Shown here: in pieces, positions 1,884-55,869 of the stretch
Layout of the letters: each line of letters opens with the position of its first letter
Numbering within the stretch: position 1 is the stretch's first letter
Assembly: GCA_964550955.1 (NCBI GenBank)
Contig: CAZKAF010000001.1
Coordinates: 318,197 to 382,196, forward strand
Length of the DNA: 64,000 nt
Direction of reading: 5' to 3'
Source: an uncultured Candidatus Saccharibacteria bacterium
GTDB taxonomy: Bacteria; Patescibacteriota; Minisyncoccia; Phycocordibacterales; CAIZLB01
Translations under genes and position numbers: made by a program
Notes under the pieces: model-generated
Database searches by the model: none
What the model was told of the DNA's origin: nothing
What the model saw: the letters and a program-made list of their open reading frames with translations, nothing else

Positions 1884-2408
1884 CTACTTGACGATGCTAA
1901 AATGCAGCACGTCAATCCTCTTTCCGGCCTTTGCCCTTGCGCCCTTAAACAAGCCGTCCTGTACGAATCCGGCTTTTTCGAAAACCTTCTGCATGGGAAC
2001 ATTCCCCTCTTCAACCTCCGCACCGATGTACTCGATGCCAAAACCCTGAAAGCTGCGCTCGACGAGCGACCTGATAACGTCGGTAGCCATTCCTTTCCCC
2101 TGATAGTTTTTGTCGCCAATCACGATGCCTAGCCCCGCGACCTTATGATGCGGATTGATATCGAACAGCGAAACCGTGCCGATGGCGGTGCCGTCTTTGG
2201 TTTCGATTGACCAATAATATCCTTCCTTGTCATCTTCGCATTCTTGCATGTAGTCATACTGTTCGCCGATATCTTGCGGCTCATTTTTAGGCTCGGGCAT
2301 ATGCGCTTGAATTTCAGGGTCAATGTCCCATGCCTGCCAAAGCAAGGCGTCTTCCTTCCTGAAAGGACGGAGAGTGCATTGTTCTGTCTGGATTATTGGG
2401 GAAATCAT
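1884..2408 (-). CDS. GNAT-family N-acetyltransferase (RimJ/RimL-like)
   Basis: 174 aa; CTLRPFRKEDA...VSLFDINPHHKVAGLGIVIGDKNYQGKGMATDV matches the acetyl-CoA binding pattern of RimL-type GNATs. Confidence 0.8.
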   Translation of the reverse strand: MISPIIQTEQCTLRPFRKEDALLWQAWDIDPEIQAHMPEPKNEPQDIGEQYDYMQECEDDKEGYYWSIETKDGTAIGTVSLFDINPHHKVAGLGIVIGDKNYQGKGMATDVIRSLVERSFQGFGIEYIGAEVEEGNVPMQKVFEKAGFVQDGLFKGARAKAGKRIDVLHFSIVK

Positions 2409-4513: not shown

Positions 4514-5437
4514 TCACGGCAAGGGCCAGGAATTGCGGACGGCGAGCACCCGCAGTTCCAGGCTGACCGCGCGCCAGTCAGGCTCGAAAGAAGAAGCATC
4601 GGAAACATGCCCGGCGACTTGATCCAAGGAGGCGCATTCCGTCCTTCGGCAGATCATTTCCGCCAACATGTCGAGCTCCGCCTTGTCGAGCGGAAGGCGG
4701 TCAATCAGGGAATGGTCGATGCGGGCCAAATCCGTGAATGCCTCCCACTTCTTGATCCGCGCCAGGCTTTTGGCGCGGTCCGAATCGTCATCATGCCCTG
4801 CCTTCAGGGCATCGCTTGCCCATATCGCGGAGAAGAGGTTGCCGATGAATTTCCTCATCACGTCCGTCGCGCCTTCGCCCGCCATGGACAGAGGATGTCC
4901 CTGCGGCGCCAGATATTCGAACGGATTGCTCAGGTTCTGAACAGTTCTCGCCGCAACCGGATCCGGCTTGAAGAATGTCACGATGTCATCGTAAAATCCC
5001 CGTATCAGGACGTATTCTTCAAGCTGGACAGAAGCTGCGAGCCGCGCGGAGGCAGCCCTGTTCATGCGGTCAAAAAACCGCAGCAGGACAAGCATCGCCT
5101 CCTTCTGAACGGACAGAAGGAGATCAGACTTTTTTCTGACGGAATGCGGCTCTCCTTTCATGGAATGCGCCGCGTCGGACAGGCCGTCGGCCCAATCAAG
5201 AATGACGTTCCTGAGAACGAGCGTCCATTCCTGAGGAGACAGGGTCTCCGGAATCCCGCGCAGCATTCCCAAGCGCTCCTCATGGCTGGTTCTGGCATCC
5301 TTGAATCTTCTCATCCACCTGGTCAGATTGAAATCCCCGACATTCCTGTATCTCTCGCGAAGCCGAGTTTTCGCTCTGACCCAAGGCACCACTTTCCGGG
5401 TGACGCCGTCCGATCCAACCTCTTTCGATATAGTCAT
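4514..5437 (-). CDS. hypothetical protein with no recognisable domain
   Basis: 307-aa ORF with balanced amino-acid composition, co-oriented with its neighbours. The antisense 338-aa ORF is Arg/Pro/Gly-rich, typical of a GC-rich antisense artefact. Confidence 0.5.
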   Translation of the reverse strand: MTISKEVGSDGVTRKVVPWVRAKTRLRERYRNVGDFNLTRWMRRFKDARTSHEERLGMLRGIPETLSPQEWTLVLRNVILDWADGLSDAAHSMKGEPHSVRKKSDLLLSVQKEAMLVLLRFFDRMNRAASARLAASVQLEEYVLIRGFYDDIVTFFKPDPVAARTVQNLSNPFEYLAPQGHPLSMAGEGATDVMRKFIGNLFSAIWASDALKAGHDDDSDRAKSLARIKKWEAFTDLARIDHSLIDRLPLDKAELDMLAEMICRRTECASLDQVAGHVSDASSFEPDWRAVSLELRVLAVRNSWPLP

Positions 5438-5658
5438 GGCAACTGCCCTCGCTTTCTATGTTTGACGTTAGTTAAGCACAATGGCTGATTTATATGGCAC
5501 GCGGGCGCGGCACGAGGCCGAACTCGCAGCATTATGACAAAGTTCTATGGGAACTTGCCCCTTATTCAAAAGTAATGATACACGCGCTTTCCTAGAATGC
5601 AACGCCGTCTTTGAGCTTTGCCGCGAGATCTGCTTGCCCGCCCATCTTTTGCAACATC

Positions 5659-8520
5659 CTACCGCTTCTTCAGCACCCTTCTCAAATATTCGCCGGTATG
5701 GCTCTTCGGATTATTGGCAACTTCTTCGGGAGTTCCCTTCGCCACTATCTTTCCGCCGCCGATGCCGCCGAGAGGGCCGATGTCGATAACGTAGTCCGAT
5801 GACTTGATGATATCCATGCTGTGCTCGATGACCACGACGGTGTTACCTTTCTGCACGAGCTTTTGCATGATTTCTATGAGCTTTCGCACGTCTTCGTAGT
5901 GAAGGCCGATGGTCGGCTCGTCGAGCAGATACATGGTTTTCTGGACATGAGGCCGATACAGTTCCGCTGACACCTTCACTCGCTGCGCCTCTCCGCCGGA
6001 AAGCGTAGTCGCGGACTGGCCGAGCTCGAGATATCCAAGACCTACTTCGTTCAAGGTATTCAAACGATCAGAAATTGAAGGGACATCTTCGAAGAACGCG
6101 AGAGCCTCTTCAACCGTCATCTTGAGCACTTCATAGATGTTCTTCTTCTTGTATCGCACTTCGAGCGTTTCCTTCATGAACCTCTTTCCGTTGCAGACAT
6201 CGCAGGTCACGTATACCGTCGGGAGGAAATGCATTTCCACTTCGATCATTCCGTTACCCTGGCAGTTCTCGCATCGCCCGCCTTTGACGTTGAAGGAGAA
6301 CCTGCTCGCCTTCCAGCCTCTGGCGCGCGCCTCGACGGTCTCGGCAAACATGTCCCGGATATGCGTCCAGGCGCCCGTATATGTCGCGGGGTTCGATCTT
6401 GGCGTCCGGCCGATAGGACTCTGATCGATGAGAATGGTTCGTCCCAAATACTCGGTGCCGGAGAAGCTTGCGCAGTTATAAATATTCGCGGACCGATGAT
6501 CCCGGTCGAGCCTTGCCAGCAAGTTCTTGTGAAGAATTTCGTATACAAATGAAGACTTGCCCGAGCCCGAAACGCCCGTAACCGTCGTCAGCCTTCCAAG
6601 AGGAACCTCGATGTTCATATTGTCGATATTGTTCACCTTGCCTCCGACGACCTTGATCCACCCCTTGTCCGCATCCCTTCTCTTTTCGGGAATTTCAATG
6701 ACCCTGTCTCCCCGAAGATAATCGAGCGTCACCGATTCGGTCGGATTAGTCTTGGCAGTCAGGAGCTCGCTGAGCCAGCCCGAAGCGATGACGTGCCCGC
6801 CATGAACTCCGGCGCCCGGCCCGATGTCTATGATGTAGTCAGCCGCGAAGATGGTGTCCTCGTCATGCTCCACGACGACGAGCGTATTCCCGAGGTCCCG
6901 AAGCTGAAGCAAGGTCTTGATGAGCCGGTCGTTGTCGCGCTGATGAAGGCCGATGGTCGGCTCGTCGAGCACGTAGAGCGCGCCCACCAGTCCGGAACCG
7001 AGCTGCGATGCCAGCCGGATGCGCTGGGCTTCGCCTCCCGAGAGCGTGTTCGCCTTTCGGTTAAGGGAAAGATATTCGATGCCGACGTCGTTCATGAACA
7101 CCAGTCGGGCCACGATTTCCTTGATGACGACTTTGGCAATTTCCGCGTCAACTTCGTTCAGCGGCAGATTGTTGAAGAAATGCAGGGAGCTTTCGATCGA
7201 AAGCGCGGTGAGGTCCACGATATTGATTCTCTTTTCAACTGTCTTTCCCTTGGCGTCAGTCTCGATTCCCATCAAGAAAACATGAAGGGCTTCGGGTCGA
7301 AGCCTGTCTCCCTTGCAGACAGGGCACGGATCGTTTATGAAAAAATGCCTTGTTCCGAGACCGTTGCATTCAGGGCAGGCGCCGTGCGGCGAGTTGAACG
7401 AGAAAAGCCTCGGCTCGACCTCGGGGAAGGAAAACCCGTCATGCGGACACATGAACTTCGAAGAGACCAGCTGATCGGTAGTCGTTGCCGGATTCTGCGT
7501 ATCGCCGTCATCCACGACGATGCGGATAAGGCCGTCAGCCTCATGGAGCGCGCGCTCGACCGACTCGTTGAGCCGCTCCCGGAAGCTCGCCGAGTTGTCG
7601 CTGATTTCCGAAATGTAAAACTGGTCGACGAGAATGTCGATGTCATGCTTCTTGGTCTTCGAGAGCACGATCTGTTCCCGCAGCTTCTTCACCGCCCCGT
7701 CCACTCGAGCCTCGTCATATCCCTTGCCGAGCATGTCATAGAGAAGCTGATAGTATTCGCCCTTCCTGCCGACGACGACCGGCGCGTAAATCTTGAACAT
7801 CCGCGTATCGAGCTCGACGCCCATCACCTTCTTTACCTTTGCGGCGGCTTTCTTTGAAGCGGAGGCGGCTGTAGCCGCACCCAAGGTAGCTGCTGCAGAA
7901 GCATCGCCTGATTTTGCCGAAGAATCCGAAGGACCTGAAGAAGCGCTGCTTTCCACGATATTGAAAATGGTCTGAAGAATTTCCTCTTTCGAGAGCTTCT
8001 TTATTTCCCTTCCGCACTCCAAGCAATGCGGCTTGCCGACTCGGGCGAAGAGAATTCGCAAGTAGTCGTAGATTTCGGTAATGGTCGCGACCGTTGATCG
8101 AGGATTGTTTGACCTGGACTTCTGGTCAATCGAGATGGCGGGAGAAAGGCCGACGATTTCGTCGACATCAGGCTTCTGCATCTGCCTTAGGAATTGCCGC
8201 GCATACGAAGAGAGCGATTCGACGTATCGCCTTTGGCCTTCGGCAAAAATAGTATCGAATGCAAGCGATGATTTTCCTGAACCGGAAAGCCCCGTGATGA
8301 CGACCATCTTGTTTCGCGGCATCTCAACCGAGATGTTTTTCAAGTTATGAGTCCTGGCGCCGCGCACGATGATGCTGTCTCCGACGGACATGTCAGTTCG
8401 GACTTTCTGCGCGACCAAGGGCTTTGAAGGCTTCTTTGCAGGCTCAAACCTTTGCCCGGATTTTGATGCAGCGCCAGGTTCAGATTGAGGATTTTTTGAG
8501 CTTTTTTTCATAATATCCAT
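5659..8520 (-). CDS. uvrA: excinuclease ABC subunit A
   Basis: 953 aa with two ABC ATPase modules ([14 protein letters not shown]...[12 protein letters not shown]; [11 protein letters not shown]...[12 protein letters not shown]) and zinc-finger CxxC pairs. Confidence 0.95.
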
Positions 8521-43281: not shown

Positions 43282-44334
43282 TCAGATCACTCCCGTTTTG
43301 CATACTATTATCTTCGTCTTGAGATATGCGTTGGCGGAAGTCATTGCCTCAATCTCAACCGTCTTTACTATTTGAAATGAGGAATCGCGCGCCACGCTCT
43401 CGAAAACCCCATACTCGCTCGTGTATACTGCAAGCCTGCCGCCAACGCTGAGTTTCCTTTCAGCATACTGCATGAAATTCCGATAAAGTTCTTCTAAATT
43501 TTCTCCTTTGGAAATAGACATGCCGAATGGCAGATCCGATGCGATGACGTCAACCGTGCCAAAATCTGGGTTGTCGCGAATATCAGCCTCTTTGACCTGG
43601 GCTTTTCGTATGAGACCTGCTTCCTTGATGTTCTGAATCGACAAAGAAAGATGCTTTTTGCTATTGTCGAAGCCGATGAGCCGTTCAAGATTCGGATACG
43701 CAAGGCCGGCTTCGATCAATAAAGTTGCACTACCTGAGAATGCATTAAGATATGACTTGGCTTTATCCAATTCGCAAAAAGAATTGAGCGCATGCGCGAC
43801 CGTCGGATCCATGGCGCCGCTCATGTTTTGAACCTTGTAACTTCGCATCGAGAGCGGCCGAGAGGTGATTTGCATGCCAACTTCCCAAACATCTTCAGGC
43901 TTAATGATGTGAATCTTCAGGTCTGCCTCGTCGCTTTCTTTCAGCTTGAAAGCTTCCGCTACGTATGTCGCGAGACTCCGCACCTCAGGCGAATGCGCTC
44001 CGGCGCAAGATATTTTGAAAGTTTTGAACTCTTCGTCGCCTTTATTACCCCCTACGTTTTCGGCCAAAACTACCTCTATTAGATTTCCAAGGATAGATTT
44101 ATTTTTTGAAACGTACGTCGGATTATATCTCGAGCTTTGAACGACAAGATATGCACGTGCAATACTTCTGAGTTTTTTAATGTCAGCCAGAAGATTCCGA
44201 TCAAAAGCTGCGTAAAGAGAATCCGCCTCATGTCTCAAGATGCGCATGCCCTCGATTTTTTTAATCTCATTTAAGACGGCCTCTTGAAGTCCGGTCGCGT
44301 AGGATAGTTTGAGTTCTGGCTGGGTTAGGGTCAT
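43282..44334 (-). CDS. THUMP-domain RNA methyltransferase (Trm14/RlmL-like)
   Basis: N-terminal THUMP-like region, SAM motif I (GSATLLIEAG) and catalytic DLPFG (DPPF-type). Confidence 0.7.
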   Translation of the reverse strand: MTLTQPELKLSYATGLQEAVLNEIKKIEGMRILRHEADSLYAAFDRNLLADIKKLRSIARAYLVVQSSRYNPTYVSKNKSILGNLIEVVLAENVGGNKGDEEFKTFKISCAGAHSPEVRSLATYVAEAFKLKESDEADLKIHIIKPEDVWEVGMQITSRPLSMRSYKVQNMSGAMDPTVAHALNSFCELDKAKSYLNAFSGSATLLIEAGLAYPNLERLIGFDNSKKHLSLSIQNIKEAGLIRKAQVKEADIRDNPDFGTVDVIASDLPFGMSISKGENLEELYRNFMQYAERKLSVGGRLAVYTSEYGVFESVARDSSFQIVKTVEIEAMTSANAYLKTKIIVCKTGVI

Positions 44335-44510
44335 TGGTTTATCTTGCGTTTTTTCAGGTCCTAGCTTTTCATTCTATAAACCTCAACAAAGTGGTTTTTC
44401 CTGCCAGCAGCTTCAAATTTTTGAGCGGCAAATTGTCTGGCTAATTCGATTTGGTTCATACTCTGGACATATTGCAATTCTATCGCATATTAATTGGATT
44501 CTATCATACT

Positions 44511-45008
44511 TTAGACGATACGCTTAAGAGCCTTTTTTATCATCGCATCGCTCCGCTCACCCCAATCAAAATACTGCTTATAATCCAATGGGTCGATGAG
44601 CTTGATTTCAGTAATTTCCCCATCTTCAGCGGCGTCTTTTGTAAAATCCCCGTAAGGTTCAACTATGGCAGCATAGCGAAGTATATACACAATTTCATCC
44701 GTTTCTTCGCTCGCGTATGTCTCATAACCTAGAGGAAACAGCTCAAGAACTTTCATATTTGATTCCTCTTTTATTTCCCTAGCAATACAGCCTTCGAATG
44801 TTTCCCCTTCTTCACGACCACCGCCGGGCATTTCCCAAACATCCCTGCCATGAGCATAACCTAATACTAATTTATCATTATAAAAACACAGCGCTCCCGC
44901 TGCACCTACAGGTAAAGACCGAATGGAGTCGAAAGTATCTAATTCTTCGTATCGTACGCTCCATTTTATACCTGTACGTTTTGATGTGTAAGTAGTGTTT
45001 GTAATCAT
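44511..45008 (-). CDS. NUDIX hydrolase (paralog 4)
   Basis: Nudix box GGGREEGETFEGCIAREIKEESNM. Confidence 0.75.
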   Translation of the reverse strand: MITNTTYTSKRTGIKWSVRYEELDTFDSIRSLPVGAAGALCFYNDKLVLGYAHGRDVWEMPGGGREEGETFEGCIAREIKEESNMKVLELFPLGYETYASEETDEIVYILRYAAIVEPYGDFTKDAAEDGEITEIKLIDPLDYKQYFDWGERSDAMIKKALKRIV

Positions 45009-45088
45009 AATCGTAAACTTGCCCCGCGCTTAATTGGACACGCCGTCTCGAGCCAGAATCATGGTCGACCAAACACCGTTTAGTCCGT

Positions 45089-45922
45089 TTAGGACATTCT
45101 AGCATGCATAAGTTTGATCGTGCTCTTGAAATGGTCGACAAAAAATACCGGTATTTTTAATTCTGAAAACCTCCCAACGCAATATGAATTAATGGCGTCC
45201 GTTGCAATTTGAGTCTGATCAAGGTTGTTCAATTCAATATGACCTACGATGATTCCTTTAGGCGTATTTTGATTAATGACGTACATGAACTGGCTCAATA
45301 TGTACCCGAGATCATCGAGAGTTTCGCCAAGCGCACCGCTGTGATATTCAATAAATACATATTTGTCCTGCAGATGAGTCTTAAGGCCGTTTTGGAGAAG
45401 GATGAATCCTGGAAGATATCCTCCAATGACGTTAACCTCAAAGACGTTGGGCACTTCAGTAGTTCCGGCTGCGTCCAAAACCTTAAGCCTTTCGCAGGTC
45501 GGTTTATTTTCCTTCAAGAAGTCTACAATAAATTGACGGCCTGCTCTTTCCGGCAAGAAATCTTTTACGTACGCTAATCCTTGGCCGTAATAGCATGTTA
45601 CCCCTTTTGTTACTGCAATTGCTGCAAAATGAGTGAAGTCACTAAGGCCATAAAAAATCTTATTCGAACCGACAACCTTGTCCCAATCTATTTTATTCAA
45701 TACTCGAAGACAATCTGAACCCCCTCTAATAAACCAGACGAGGTCAGCGTCGCTATTCAATGCATCATTAAACAAGGTCACCTTTCCATCAAGATTGTCA
45801 GCCCCTGTCGCAAAGTCAAGATAATCAATCTTCTCCTCCACAAGAAAATCAATCGAATCTTTATAAGAGCGATGTTTCTTAAAGTCTGACTCCTGACACA
45901 AATCCACTAGCGCGATTTTCAT
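45089..45922 (-). CDS. LD-carboxypeptidase-like (peptidase S66) protein; AT-rich
   Basis: IRGGSDCLRVL and the GLSDFTHF Ser motif, with a later EYHSG, in the order of S66 catalytic residues. Confidence 0.5.
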   Translation of the reverse strand: MKIALVDLCQESDFKKHRSYKDSIDFLVEEKIDYLDFATGADNLDGKVTLFNDALNSDADLVWFIRGGSDCLRVLNKIDWDKVVGSNKIFYGLSDFTHFAAIAVTKGVTCYYGQGLAYVKDFLPERAGRQFIVDFLKENKPTCERLKVLDAAGTTEVPNVFEVNVIGGYLPGFILLQNGLKTHLQDKYVFIEYHSGALGETLDDLGYILSQFMYVINQNTPKGIIVGHIELNNLDQTQIATDAINSYCVGRFSELKIPVFFVDHFKSTIKLMHARMS

Positions 45923-46000
45923 AAACTAATTGTATCATAAGAAATTCCTAGCCAGATTTACCTCATGCCACGTAGAATATTCGAGCCGGCTTTTCTTGGT

Positions 46001-46017
46001 GGGCCCACAAGGATTCG
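46001..46017. repeat. 17-nt direct repeat of the tRNA-Trp 3' end
   Basis: GGGCCCACAAGGATTCG is identical to 46216-46232 inside tRNA-Trp, 215 bp away. Confidence 0.7.
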
Positions 46018-46214
46018 GTCGTTACACGACCAGTATGCCTTTTAAACAGTCTGTTCGCCTCGTTTATGTACCCAAATAATATCACAACATCACCCCTCGG
46101 CTCGATACTGTGCTCAAAAGCCCTTCTCATCCTTGTCGAAAGCACCCCGTGCTTCCTTGGACCCTTCGATGGAGGTAAAATACCGCCCAATAAATTAGGC
46201 GGTATTTTACTCTG

Positions 46215-46286
46215 CGGGCCCACAAGGATTCGAACCTTGAACCTCGCGTTTGGAGTGCGATGTTTTACCATTGAAACTATGGACCC
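46215..46286 (-). tRNA. tRNA-Trp(CCA)
   Basis: Reverse complement GGGTCCA..TCGCA-CTCCAAA-CGCGA..CAAGG-TTCGAAT-CCTTG-TGGGCCC-G. Discriminator G73; no encoded CCA. Confidence 0.8.
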
Positions 46287-46750: not shown

Positions 46751-46848
46751 GGTTGTATATTATGTTTACATAAAATGCTATTTCTAAGTTGTTCGTCTTT
46801 GACCTTATTTAAGCCTTTGATGAACGCTTCCTTACATTTTACTGGTGT

Positions 46849-46862
46849 GCAGAGCAGGATTC
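46849..46862. repeat. 14-nt direct repeat of the tRNA-Tyr 3' region
   Basis: GCAGAGCAGGATTC is identical to 47014-47027 inside tRNA-Tyr, ~150 bp away. Confidence 0.6.
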
Positions 46863-46985
46863 TCCGACTACGTCGGCAGGTGCTTTTCGATCTCATCTTC
46901 GCTTGATACCAAGCTCGATTCGATAACGAAAAGCCTTTCTCATCCTGCACGAAAGTCATAAATGACTTTCTTATGCTTACCTAAT

Positions 46986-47010
46986 AAAAAGGACATTTGT
47001 CCTTTTTTTG
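46986..47010. terminator. bidirectional rho-independent terminator abutting the tRNA-Tyr 3' end
   Basis: AAAAAGGACAtttGTCCTTTTTTT; the GGACA/TGTCC stem has U-runs on both strands. Confidence 0.5.
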
Positions 47011-47094
47011 TGCGCAGAGCAGGATTCGAACCTGCGAAGCCCAATGGGCGTTTGATTTACAGTCAAATGCGATTGACCACTCCGCCATCTGCGC
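47011..47094 (-). tRNA. tRNA-Tyr(GTA) with a long variable arm
   Basis: Reverse complement GCGCAGA..TTTGA-CTGTAAA-TCAAA..long variable arm..CAGG-TTCGAAT-CCTG-CTCTGCGC-A. Confidence 0.8.
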
Positions 47095-54737: not shown

Positions 54738-55064
54738 ATGAACACTCCCAGATCATACAGAAACCAAAGAGCCGAAGACGTTCTCAAGGAGCTCGCGATG
54801 AACTTCATCAAGCTCGAGTCGAACGGCACCTCTCTCGTGACGGTCACGAACATCTCAGTGCAGAACAGGGGCAAGAATGCCACCATCCTGTTCACCGTGC
54901 TTCCGGAAGACAAGGAAGAGGTAGTCCTGGACTTCCTCAAGCGAAAGAGGCCCGAGTTCAGGGGGTTCATCAAGGAAAACTCCAGAGTCGGCATTATCCC
55001 CTTTATCGACTTCGAAATCGACCTCGGCGAGAAAAATCGACAAAATGTGGACAGGTTGCTATAG
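54738..55064 (+). CDS. rbfA: ribosome-binding factor A
   Basis: 108-aa KH-like protein immediately downstream of infB (conserved order); R...V...I..L..I.... pattern. Confidence 0.7.
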   Translation: MNTPRSYRNQRAEDVLKELAMNFIKLESNGTSLVTVTNISVQNRGKNATILFTVLPEDKEEVVLDFLKRKRPEFRGFIKENSRVGIIPFIDFEIDLGEKNRQNVDRLL

Positions 55065-55180
55065 TATCTGAGTATTTTAGCTGTTCAAGCAGTCGAAATA
55101 CGCTCATTCCGGCGGCGGAGCCAGGATGTCAGGGACTTCCCTGCTCGAAAGCTCAGCATGCGGGATGAATGCAAATAAAT

Positions 55181-55359: not shown

Positions 55360-55527
55360 CAGAATGCGGCGCAAGCACGGTGTCATGGCGGTCCTGAGAA
55401 ACCCCCGGACGGCACTTTTTCTTTTCTTTCTTTTATGCTATAAAGTACTTACTTTTATAGTGCAGGGAAACGAAGACGGAAGTCGCGGGACGGAGGAATT
55501 CGAGAAACGCATGATAAAATCACATAT

Positions 55528-55603
55528 CCGCCCGTAGCTCAGTTGGTAGAGCAACTCCCTCTTAAGGAGATGGTCGTAGGTTCGAATCCTACCGGGCGGA
55601 CCA
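55528..55603 (+). tRNA. tRNA-Lys(CTT), CCA encoded
   Basis: Acceptor CCGCCCG/CGGGCGG (C1-G72), D-stem GCTC/GAGC, anticodon loop CTCTTAA, and T-arm GTAGG-TTCGAAT-CCTAC. A27/A43 mismatch. Confidence 0.7.
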
Positions 55604-55777
55604 TAAACAAAAGAATACTTTTCAAGTGTTGCTTTTGTTTATTTGAAGCCCGAGTGCATAATTTATTATGCACGTGCAGGATTCGAAAGGGTTCTCCTGT
55701 ATTTTTGAGAAACGAGCAAAGTTCATGGCTGAGCGAGTTTTGAAAAAATAGGAAACCCGTACTGGTCCTGTAAGGAC

Positions 55778-55796
55778 CGAATCCTACCGGGCGGAC
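55778..55796. repeat. 19-nt direct repeat of the tRNA-Lys 3' end
   Basis: CGAATCCTACCGGGCGGAC is identical to 55583-55601 inside tRNA-Lys, ~195 bp downstream. Confidence 0.7.
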
Positions 55797-55869
55797 ACGT
55801 CGCAAGTCATGAAACCGCCGTTCGCGAGAATGCGGCAAAATGATTGTACGTAAAAAGTTGGGCGAGTGG

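Follow-up and report, generated by a model that had tools for sequence, protein, structure and literature searches.

RtT-like tRNA-mimic modules behind tRNA genes in Patescibacteria

The window analysed here is a stretch of 64,000 nucleotides from an uncultured Candidatus Saccharibacteria bacterium (GenBank assembly GCA_964550955.1, contig CAZKAF010000001.1, positions 318,197 to 382,196 of the forward strand), and the element in question lies directly behind its tRNA-Lys gene, where the 3′ end of the tRNA recurs a short distance downstream. The evidence leans towards reading positions 55604-55796 as a non-coding module of the RtT type: linked to a tRNA gene, folded in a tRNA-like manner, processed like a tRNA and probably maintained as a selfish passenger. 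The module is one member of a family of RtT-like tRNA mimics that is widespread in Patescibacteria (the Candidate Phyla Radiation, CPR) and is not represented in Rfam 15.

RtT RNA, also called rttR, corresponds to 178-bp repeats that lie behind tyrT-tyrV of Escherichia coli and carry a 19-nt tRNA end. To our knowledge these repeats, known since the tyrT locus was first sequenced, have never been explained.

The repeated tRNA end and what it encloses

The 19-mer CGAATCCTACCGGGCGGAC occurs at 55583-55601 within tRNA-Lys(CTT), 55528-55603, and again at 55778-55796, in agreement with the initial annotation of the window. The match spans the tRNA from C56 in the T-loop to C74, the first C past the discriminator, and the repeat extends to 22 of 24 positions (AGGTTCGAATCC... 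versus AGGACCGAATCC...); the chance expectation for an exact 19-mer recurring within 200 nt is ∼1e-9. Two further features that had been pointed out in the intervening DNA are found there: a piece resembling a reversed T-arm, GTGCAGGATTCGAAAGG, at 55674-55690, which supplies the pairing partner of the distal T-stem strand, and a 9-bp palindrome, GTGCATAAT-TT-ATTATGCAC, at 55654-55673. The same annotation counted three tRNAs with such a tail duplication, and distal copies do lie 215 nt downstream of tRNA-Trp and 165 nt downstream of tRNA-Tyr. These two match their tRNAs at 16/17 positions and continue with CCA; the Lys copy matches at 19/19 and has CAC where CCA is expected, after discriminator A. 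The window has eight tRNA genes (ARAGORN), and no distal copy is present at the remaining five. A covariance-model scan of the window agrees, with three significant hits (83.9, 76.0 and 60.9 bits) and the next at 12 bits. When the three inter-repeat segments are aligned with each other, a check that the annotation had proposed, they prove to belong to one family.

The duplication is real. Repeat collapse or an assembly-graph bubble could in principle produce a second copy, but this explanation is refuted and its probability is vanishingly small: the identical sequence is present in an independent Logan assembly, and over 60 further independent assemblies show this architecture.

Read on the tRNA strand, the inserts share one order of parts. 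A hairpin follows the tRNA, in many copies flanked by an A-tract on its 5′ side and a T-tract on its 3′ side; next come a 7-mer that resembles the 5′ acceptor strand of this tRNA, usually with AG behind it, and a second hairpin of variable sequence (hp2), whose equivalents in other copies likewise differ in sequence. A strand resembling the 5′ side of the T-stem then leads, through ATTCGAA or ATGAGAA, into a long irregular stem (P2), which is followed by GTAC(T/A) and a short hairpin (P3), typically GGTCC-TGTAA-GGACC. The module closes with (C)GAATCC, the T-stem 3′ strand, the acceptor 3′ strand and the discriminator, which together constitute the repeated 19-mer. Individual copies vary within this order: the junction of the Lys copy reads GGATTCGAA in place of GGATGAGAA, and P3 of the Tyr element is CCGAC GTA GTCGG. 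Coordinates are collected in Table 1.

Fold, covariation and strand bias

The minimum-free-energy fold of 55640-55800 has an acceptor-like stem that encloses hp2 and a second stem (P1), and P1 in turn encloses P2 and P3. The folding energy of the Lys element is −58.6 kcal/mol, against −38.1 kcal/mol in shuffled sequences (z = −5.63), and the same topology is predicted for the Trp element. In this fold the 5′ acceptor-like strand pairs with the acceptor 3′ strand of the repeat, and hp2 stands in for the D and anticodon arms. P1 is a T-stem built from the inner strand that resembles the T-stem 5′ side and from the repeated T-loop/T-stem 3′ strand, with the T-loop expanded by P2 and P3. As modelled, the module thus mimics one half of the neighbouring tRNA, that of the acceptor stem and T-arm; a single hairpin substitutes for the D and anticodon arms, and two helices are inserted in the T-loop.

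Comparison between copies supports this fold, with strong covariation. In a plain MAFFT alignment of 29 sequences, 93.4% of the cells are paired (75.2% in shuffled alignments) and covariation is 0.443 (0.118 shuffled). For 67 distinct sequences, whose alignment was fitted to the model and so favours it, the corresponding values are 94.1% against 73.6% and 0.494 against 0.127; both partners change in 15/20 pairs, and slid controls do not exceed 56.5%. G.U and U.G pairs number 39, compared with 17 A.C and C.A pairs (binomial p = 0.005, the copies not being independent). The tRNA-sense strand folds better than its complement in 24/34 copies (p = 0.005). Together, the pairing statistics and the strand bias point to a single-stranded form of the sense strand, be it RNA or folded DNA.

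Neither ARAGORN nor the Rfam tRNA model calls the Lys, Trp or Tyr element as a tRNA, and a canonical tRNA gene or pseudogene can be rejected: one hairpin with a loop of 2-4 nt replaces both the D and the anticodon arm, and the T-loop holds ∼90 nt. A ribozyme (hammerhead or other) or a K-turn was also considered for GGAUGAGAA and the GA-rich tip, and inspection by eye gave it no support.

A family across the Patescibacteria

The 21-nt core pattern GGTCNTGTAANGACCGAATCC, with 19 fixed bases and by our own estimate ∼4 chance matches in 596 Gb, matches 27 stretches in the GTDB species set, labelled Paceibacterota, Kaiserbacteria, Saccharibacteria, Patescibacteria or unclassified metagenome-assembled genomes, and a further 37 stretches in metagenomes. 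Its two free positions form a Watson-Crick pair in 58/59 distinct matches. Viral contigs gave 0 matches to the core pattern, which leaves an origin as a phage attP site unsupported. A covariance model of the family (R1) picked up further copies that lack the exact pattern, for a total of 73 hits at E ≤ 1e-10. The window itself belongs to a CPR bacterium (Candidatus Paceibacterota), judging by a neighbouring ClpB-like protein whose nearest relatives are encoded in metagenome-assembled genomes with the labels Candidatus Paceibacterota, Parcubacteria or Patescibacteria.

Related elements, which the initial annotation had suggested looking for at other tRNAs, are common beyond the window. A same-strand tRNA lies just upstream in 56/74 distinct copies, and 19 anticodon classes are represented: Ser-GCT, Ser-GGA, Ser-CGA, Ser-TGA, Ser-ACT, Tyr, Pro, Ile, Arg, Ala-TGC, Ala-GGC, Asp, Trp, Val, Met, Lys, Gly-GCC, Gly-TCC and Thr. 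There are also clusters in which a matched copy stands behind each tRNA: in locus L056, tRNA-Met, tRNA-Asp and tRNA-Thr are each followed by an element, and L018 has one element behind each of two tRNA-Gly genes and a tRNA-Pro gene. Size is uniform across the family, at about 130-215 bp (165-215 bp for the inserts of the window). The literature searched holds no description of such elements in CPR bacteria.

Arms that follow the tRNA and a core that changes partners

The arms of each copy track the tRNA beside it. Between G57 and the discriminator, the distal copy agrees with the upstream tRNA at ≥15/17 positions in 25/55 copies; in the remaining copies the identity ends after the T-stem strand. 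Where the T-loop is of the GATTC or GAGTC variant, the inner strand and the distal strand both carry it. The cognate 5′ acceptor 7-mer is found in the spacer at 7/7 positions in 33% of copies, as compared with 0.9% for non-cognate 7-mers, and at ≥6/7 positions in 53% as compared with 9%. At G.U pairs in the T-stem of the tRNA, the base of the inner strand is in most cases the one that forms an exact Watson-Crick pair with the 3′ strand (∼10/14 positions), a pattern that suggests templating from the tRNA 3′ end; the acceptor copy of the Trp element is a counter-example. Among the full copies whose tRNA gene lacks CCA, CCA follows the distal copy in 6/25, which is suggestive of copying from mature tRNA and is not significant against C/A-rich trailers.

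The core behaves differently from the arms. Cores (junction 1, P2 and junction 2) that are ≥85% identical stand beside different tRNAs, the combinations being Ser-GCT/Ile/Tyr, Gly-TCC/Pro and Ser/Arg. In alignments of such near-identical cores the scaffold is conserved, and the acceptor-5′ 7-mer and three variable T-stem bases are swapped to suit each tRNA. It follows that the core moves and that its arms are re-matched.

A single orthologous site, tRNA-Tyr/rpmG, is found in three states: a GAGAA-type copy in the window, a TCGAA-type copy in the relative L003 and only a decayed left half in the relative L007. The last of these (L007 7703-7800, behind tRNA-Tyr) consists of GCGAAGG-AG-hairpin-CGTGCAG, and the family model gives no hit at tRNA-Tyr or tRNA-Trp of L007. 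In locus L027 an element on the minus strand (2383-2629) lies behind a tRNA-Ile that is itself ∼2.7 kb downstream of a same-strand 16S rRNA gene (5323-5925). The 5′ arms of this element suit tRNA-Ile, but the distal T-stem strand resembles that of Tyr and the core groups with copies linked to tRNA-Tyr; judged by these parts, it looks like an intermediate of arm replacement.

Relation to RtT RNA of E. coli

At the Rfam gathering level the window yields only tRNAs. The RtT model RF00391 aligns over its full length with the Tyr element; GGAUGAGAA and AAUCC...CACCA anchor the alignment, which scores 17.9 bits where the threshold is 45. At E ≤ 10 it has no match on the Lys or Trp elements, and weak matches to other Rfam families at that level, such as CRISPR-repeat, SraG and rimP, were put down to chance. 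Eight related loci also lack an RtT hit.

The score falls short of the threshold, but the layout is that of RtT. The tyrT-tyrV region of E. coli K-12 has four RtT copies, each behind a tRNA and each ending in the last 19 nt of tRNA-Tyr. In these copies the strand GGGGAAGGAUGAGAA pairs with UAAUCCUUCCCC, and a small hairpin precedes GAGUAAUCC. Within this locus the four copies take the top ranks under model R1 (18.7 to 14.2 bits), via P1 only. The P2 tip motif GAGC..GCGA(A/G) is present in 31/67 CPR copies, compared with 0.6 in shuffled sequences, and E. coli RtT carries GAGCGCCAGCGAGAG.

Set side by side, both kinds of element lie directly 3′ of a tRNA on the same strand, the Lys element being placed between tRNA-Lys and tRNA-Leu, and both end with the last ∼19 nt of the tRNA (AAUCC, T-stem, acceptor strand and CCA). 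In both, an upstream strand (GGGGAAGGAUGAGAA in RtT) pairs with the copied tRNA end and closes the fold (...GGAU(GAGAA) with ...AAUCC...); the junction GGAUGAGAA is identical in the Trp and Tyr elements of the window. Both also have a small hairpin just before (G)AAUCC, the tip motif GAGCG...GCGAG, tandem copies and a copy number that varies between strains. With an E. coli copy (L035 767-898) as query, complete E. coli genomes have 1-14 RtT copies each (median 3), and in all 18 matches are on plasmids. RtT has likewise been reported beside tRNA genes other than tRNA-Tyr: members stand beside Asn and Lys tRNA genes in Actinobacillus, and their RNA was detected on Northern blots (PMC4986893). 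Erwinia strains differ by insertion or replacement of an RtT copy (PMC7542023), and rttR is induced by stress, its mode of action being unknown (bioRxiv 10.1101/2024.07.17.603846).

There are differences too. The CPR copies score far under the family threshold and belong to a different host phylum; most have the extra hp2 between the acceptor-like and T-stem-like strands, together with a highly conserved P3; and many have a terminator ahead of them. The heptamer GCGAAGC, known as a very stable mini-hairpin, occurs at the P2 tip in 7/67 CPR copies (for example L030 3696-3806 and L033) and also in E. coli RtT (L035).

Proposed processing and the competing explanations

If the module is an RNA of the RtT type, the Lys element would be read through from the tRNA operon, between tRNA-Lys and tRNA-Leu. 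The surrounding Cys-Leu-Lys-Leu cluster has a promoter-like site at 55037-55065, ahead of tRNA-Cys, and no strong terminator in front of tRNA-Leu; on this arrangement the element is probably transcribed together with the tRNAs. A minihelix made of an acceptor stem and a T-stem is accepted by RNase P, by RNase Z and by the CCA-adding enzyme. Since the acceptor-like stem and T-stem of the module resemble such a minihelix, the module may be excised as a discrete RNA. The cuts would be made by RNase P on the 5′ side of the acceptor-like stem and by RNase Z or exonucleases past the discriminator, as reported for E. coli RtT. Spread would occur by duplication, probably as a selfish passenger of tRNA genes, with the arms re-templated from the adjacent tRNA 3′ end.

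Several observations weigh against this interpretation. A terminator (A-tract, hairpin and T-tract) lies between the tRNA and the core in 32/54 tRNA-linked copies by pattern count, the Trp and Tyr elements of the window included, and may keep read-through low. RF00391 stays below its gathering score on every copy tested. The distal acceptor strand is missing, with the core intact, in about half of the copies, so that the acceptor-like stem is not universally maintained. The complementarity of the inner strand fits templating at the DNA level as well as selection on an RNA, and the bias towards G.U pairs is also expected from folded single-stranded DNA. The conservation of P3, finally, is partly built in, because the family was gathered by an exact P3 pattern.

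The main rival is a miniature mobile DNA cassette in which the folded P1-P2-P3 would be a recombination site comparable to integron attC or the attP of phage CTX. A recombinase supplied in trans would insert the cassette at the T-loop/3′ end of a tRNA gene, duplicating that end, and some copies would carry cargo. This has a real, if minority, chance of being right: it accounts for arrays and cargo, without a recombinase to point to. In its favour, presence varies between relatives; tandem copies occur in L034, L058 and E. coli, whose genomes hold 1-14 copies; and RtT is inserted or replaced between Erwinia strains (PMC7542023). It is also favoured by an array in L019 with a 46-mer promoter-like repeat for each open reading frame (ORF), an orphan copy in L011 that borders a block with a cyclic-oligonucleotide-based anti-phage signalling system (CBASS), the near-identical cores beside different tRNAs and an inner strand that is mostly the exact complement of the 3′ strand. 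However, no recombinase and no recurring neighbour protein were found in the examined flanks, viral contigs gave 0 matches and most copies are cargo-free. The distal end point of identity varies from 6 to 43 nt, unlike a fixed crossover, and a copy of the 5′ acceptor strand is needless for such recombination. No clean empty site was seen either: the seemingly empty site of L007 keeps the decayed left half.

Another form of DNA integration had been implied by the initial annotation, which called the duplication att-like. Integrases that target tRNA genes usually use the tRNA 3′ end starting in the T-loop, and the two 19-nt copies could be attL and attR of a prophage or genomic island of the classic integrase type whose interior has been deleted. 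The direct repeat of a tRNA 3′ end from the T-loop onwards stands, as do an intact tRNA gene and variable genes that sometimes lie near, downstream of the elements. Their reading as att sites of such an island does not. The three inserts hold no ORF, the 175-bp Lys insert included, and no integrase remnant; elements of this family, with no integrase in the flanks examined, are uniform in size (∼0.2 kb). Their interior is conserved and structured, and covaries in more than 70 copies at 19 tRNA classes. Within the fold, the tRNA end is also present in inverted copies and the 5′ acceptor strand in a further copy, for which recombination at the tRNA 3′ end alone is insufficient. A plain att scar is rejected on these grounds, since a conserved, covarying and strand-specific fold is not decayed island DNA, and its probability is very low indeed.

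It is improbable, though less so than an island scar, that the module has no function of its own and is either a by-product of template switching during replication, extending a terminator palindrome, or an elaborate terminator or 3′-end protection structure. A single long quasi-palindrome does run from the tRNA 3′ end through the terminator hairpin to the 5′ arms, the inner strand is the complement of the 3′ strand, and truncated copies often end in a T-rich tract. Such an origin nonetheless leaves the P2/P3 core unexplained, which is conserved across Paceibacterota, Kaiserbacteria and Saccharibacteria with compensatory changes and recurs as discrete subtypes beside different tRNAs.

Comparison with other tRNA-like and folded elements

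Mimicry of an acceptor stem and T-arm, with a free 3′ N(CCA) and no anticodon, is shared by the modules with the tRNA-like domain of transfer-messenger RNA (tmRNA), with the Y RNA YrlA and with the tRNA-like structures of plant viruses. Each of these imitates a single tRNA type and is present once per genome, whereas each module mimics its own neighbour and has its T-loop replaced by a two-helix insertion. Rfam scans revealed no sequence or Rfam similarity of the elements to the tmRNA domain, YrlA or the viral structures.

Integron attC sites and folded attP sites of the CTX type are alike in having imperfect inverted repeats, a strand-specific fold and a variable centre. The pairing of one ORF with one site, typical of integron arrays, is seen among the elements only in L019. 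Unlike attC, the elements are anchored at a tRNA gene and mostly lack an ORF, and no link to IntI or Xer was found; the attC core sites GTTRRRY/RYYYAAC are absent from the family consensus, and the examined flanks contain no integrase.

A further parallel concerns processing. Pairing of 5′ arms with the T-stem and acceptor 3′ strand would form a tRNA-processing substrate, as in the external guides of RNase P and the half-tRNA guides of RNase Z. The 5′ arms of the element look like a tRNA 5′ half, and in this they resemble RNase P external guide sequences and RNase Z 5′-half-tRNA guides. The guides are artificial or act in trans; the element has both halves in one predicted transcript.

Implications

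The CPR elements form a second large and diverse set with the RtT layout, with over 70 copies and 19 anticodon classes; the genomes carry the labels Paceibacterota, Kaiserbacteria and Saccharibacteria. These elements add to the E. coli copies a fold defined by covariation, the rule that the four arms follow the tRNA and evidence that the core changes partners. Whether RtT is a functional RNA or a selfish passenger, and how the arms are copied, thereby become testable questions. For the annotation of CPR genomes the consequence is practical: unless a model exists, these repeats are misread as att sites or as tRNA fragments.

A bolder proposal, on present evidence rather doubtful, is that enterobacterial RtT and the Patescibacteria family are one widespread class of tRNA parasites. 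A recombinase-free core would move between tRNA genes and have its four arms re-templated from the resident tRNA, so that each copy comes to mimic its neighbour, and the class could seed small arrays of gene cassettes.

Features of the window and gene neighbourhoods

Table 1. Positions of the Lys, Trp and Tyr elements and of their tRNA genes in the window
Feature	Position	Strand	Source
tRNA-Lys(CTT), CCA encoded; third gene of the cluster Cys-Leu-Lys-element-Leu	55528..55603	+	ARAGORN; Rfam tRNA 72 bits
Proximal copy of the 19-nt repeat, T-loop C56 to C74 of tRNA-Lys	55583..55601	+	
Lys trailer hairpin TAAACAAAAG ... CTTTTGTTTA, AT-rich, weakly terminator-like	55604..55641	+	
Lys acceptor-5′-like strand AAGCCCG, 5/7 identical to CCGCCCG of tRNA-Lys; GCCCG pairs with distal CGGGC	55646..55652	+	
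Lys hp2, the 9-bp palindrome, in place of D and anticodon arms	55654..55673	+	
Lys P1 5′ strand GCAGGATTCG, T-stem 5′-like then ATTCG; pairs with distal CGAATCCTAC, one C.A mismatch	55676..55685	+	
Lys P2, long irregular stem with variable tip; base pairs covary family-wide	55689..55758	+	
Lys junction GTACT and hairpin P3 (GGTCC TGTAA GGACC), most conserved part of the family	55759..55778	+	
Distal copy of the 19-nt repeat	55778..55796	+	
P1 3′ strand, in the Lys distal copy	55778-55787	+	
Acceptor 3′ strand CGGGCGG, in the Lys distal copy	55788-55794	+	
Discriminator A, in the Lys distal copy	55795	+	
Trp sister element, behind tRNA-Trp	45991..46213	-	
Trp distal copy, ending ...TGGGCCC A CCA	45991-46017	-	
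Trp core	45995-46142	-	
Trp hp2	46138-46155	-	
Trp acceptor-5′ copy GGGTCCA, identical to the 5′ end of tRNA-Trp	46158-46164	-	
Trp terminator hairpin	46175-46210	-	
tRNA-Trp(CCA), CCA not encoded	46214..46286	-	ARAGORN, Rfam
Tyr sister element, GGATGAGAA junction type, behind tRNA-Tyr	46837..47009	-	
Tyr distal copy, ending ...TCTGCAC A CCA	46837-46863	-	
tRNA-Tyr(GTA), CCA not encoded	47010..47094	-	ARAGORN, Rfam

After tRNA-Leu(TAA), at 55361-55413 of the window, GGTCCTGAGAAACCCCCGGACGGCAC is followed by a T-run and resembles a reduced P3/GAGAA junction joined to the Leu acceptor 3′ end. By this resemblance the stretch may be a fourth, strongly decayed copy, one that escapes the family model. 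Immediately downstream of the Trp element, the minus strand of the window (43282-45922) has genes for Peptidase_S66, NUDIX and a UPF0020 methyltransferase, which are missing at that position in the relatives L003 and L007.

Most copies in the family are free of cargo, and two loci (L034 and L058) have tandem cargo-less copies. The most cassette-like arrangement is that of L019 (2654-4360), where tRNA-Ser is followed by an element, an ORF of 136 aa, a second element (97% identical over 181 nt), a GrpB gene and a partial third element, with a 46-nt promoter-like repeat ahead of each ORF. In L030, two copies stand 1.3 kb apart with small accessory genes between them. The orphan element of L011 (∼2046-2178, minus strand) has no tRNA in its 8-kb locus and lies at the far end of a block that extends 4 kb upstream in the orientation of the element. 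This block contains a CBASS pair, consisting of a patatin-like phospholipase and an SMODS/AGS-C cyclase, and a LexA-like repressor gene.

No integrase or recombinase was found in the flanks of the copies in the window, L011, L015, L019 and L030, the rest of the window not having been scanned exhaustively. The genes seen in the examined flanks are Peptidase_S66, NUDIX, methyltransferase, GrpB, DUF695, CBASS and LexA-like genes. All-against-all clustering of 560 neighbouring ORFs brought out no recurrent partner protein. The best neighbour family is a small NYN-domain (nuclease-like) protein in four loci (L003 9832-10125, L024, L025 and L028), and its presence probably reflects conserved gene order.

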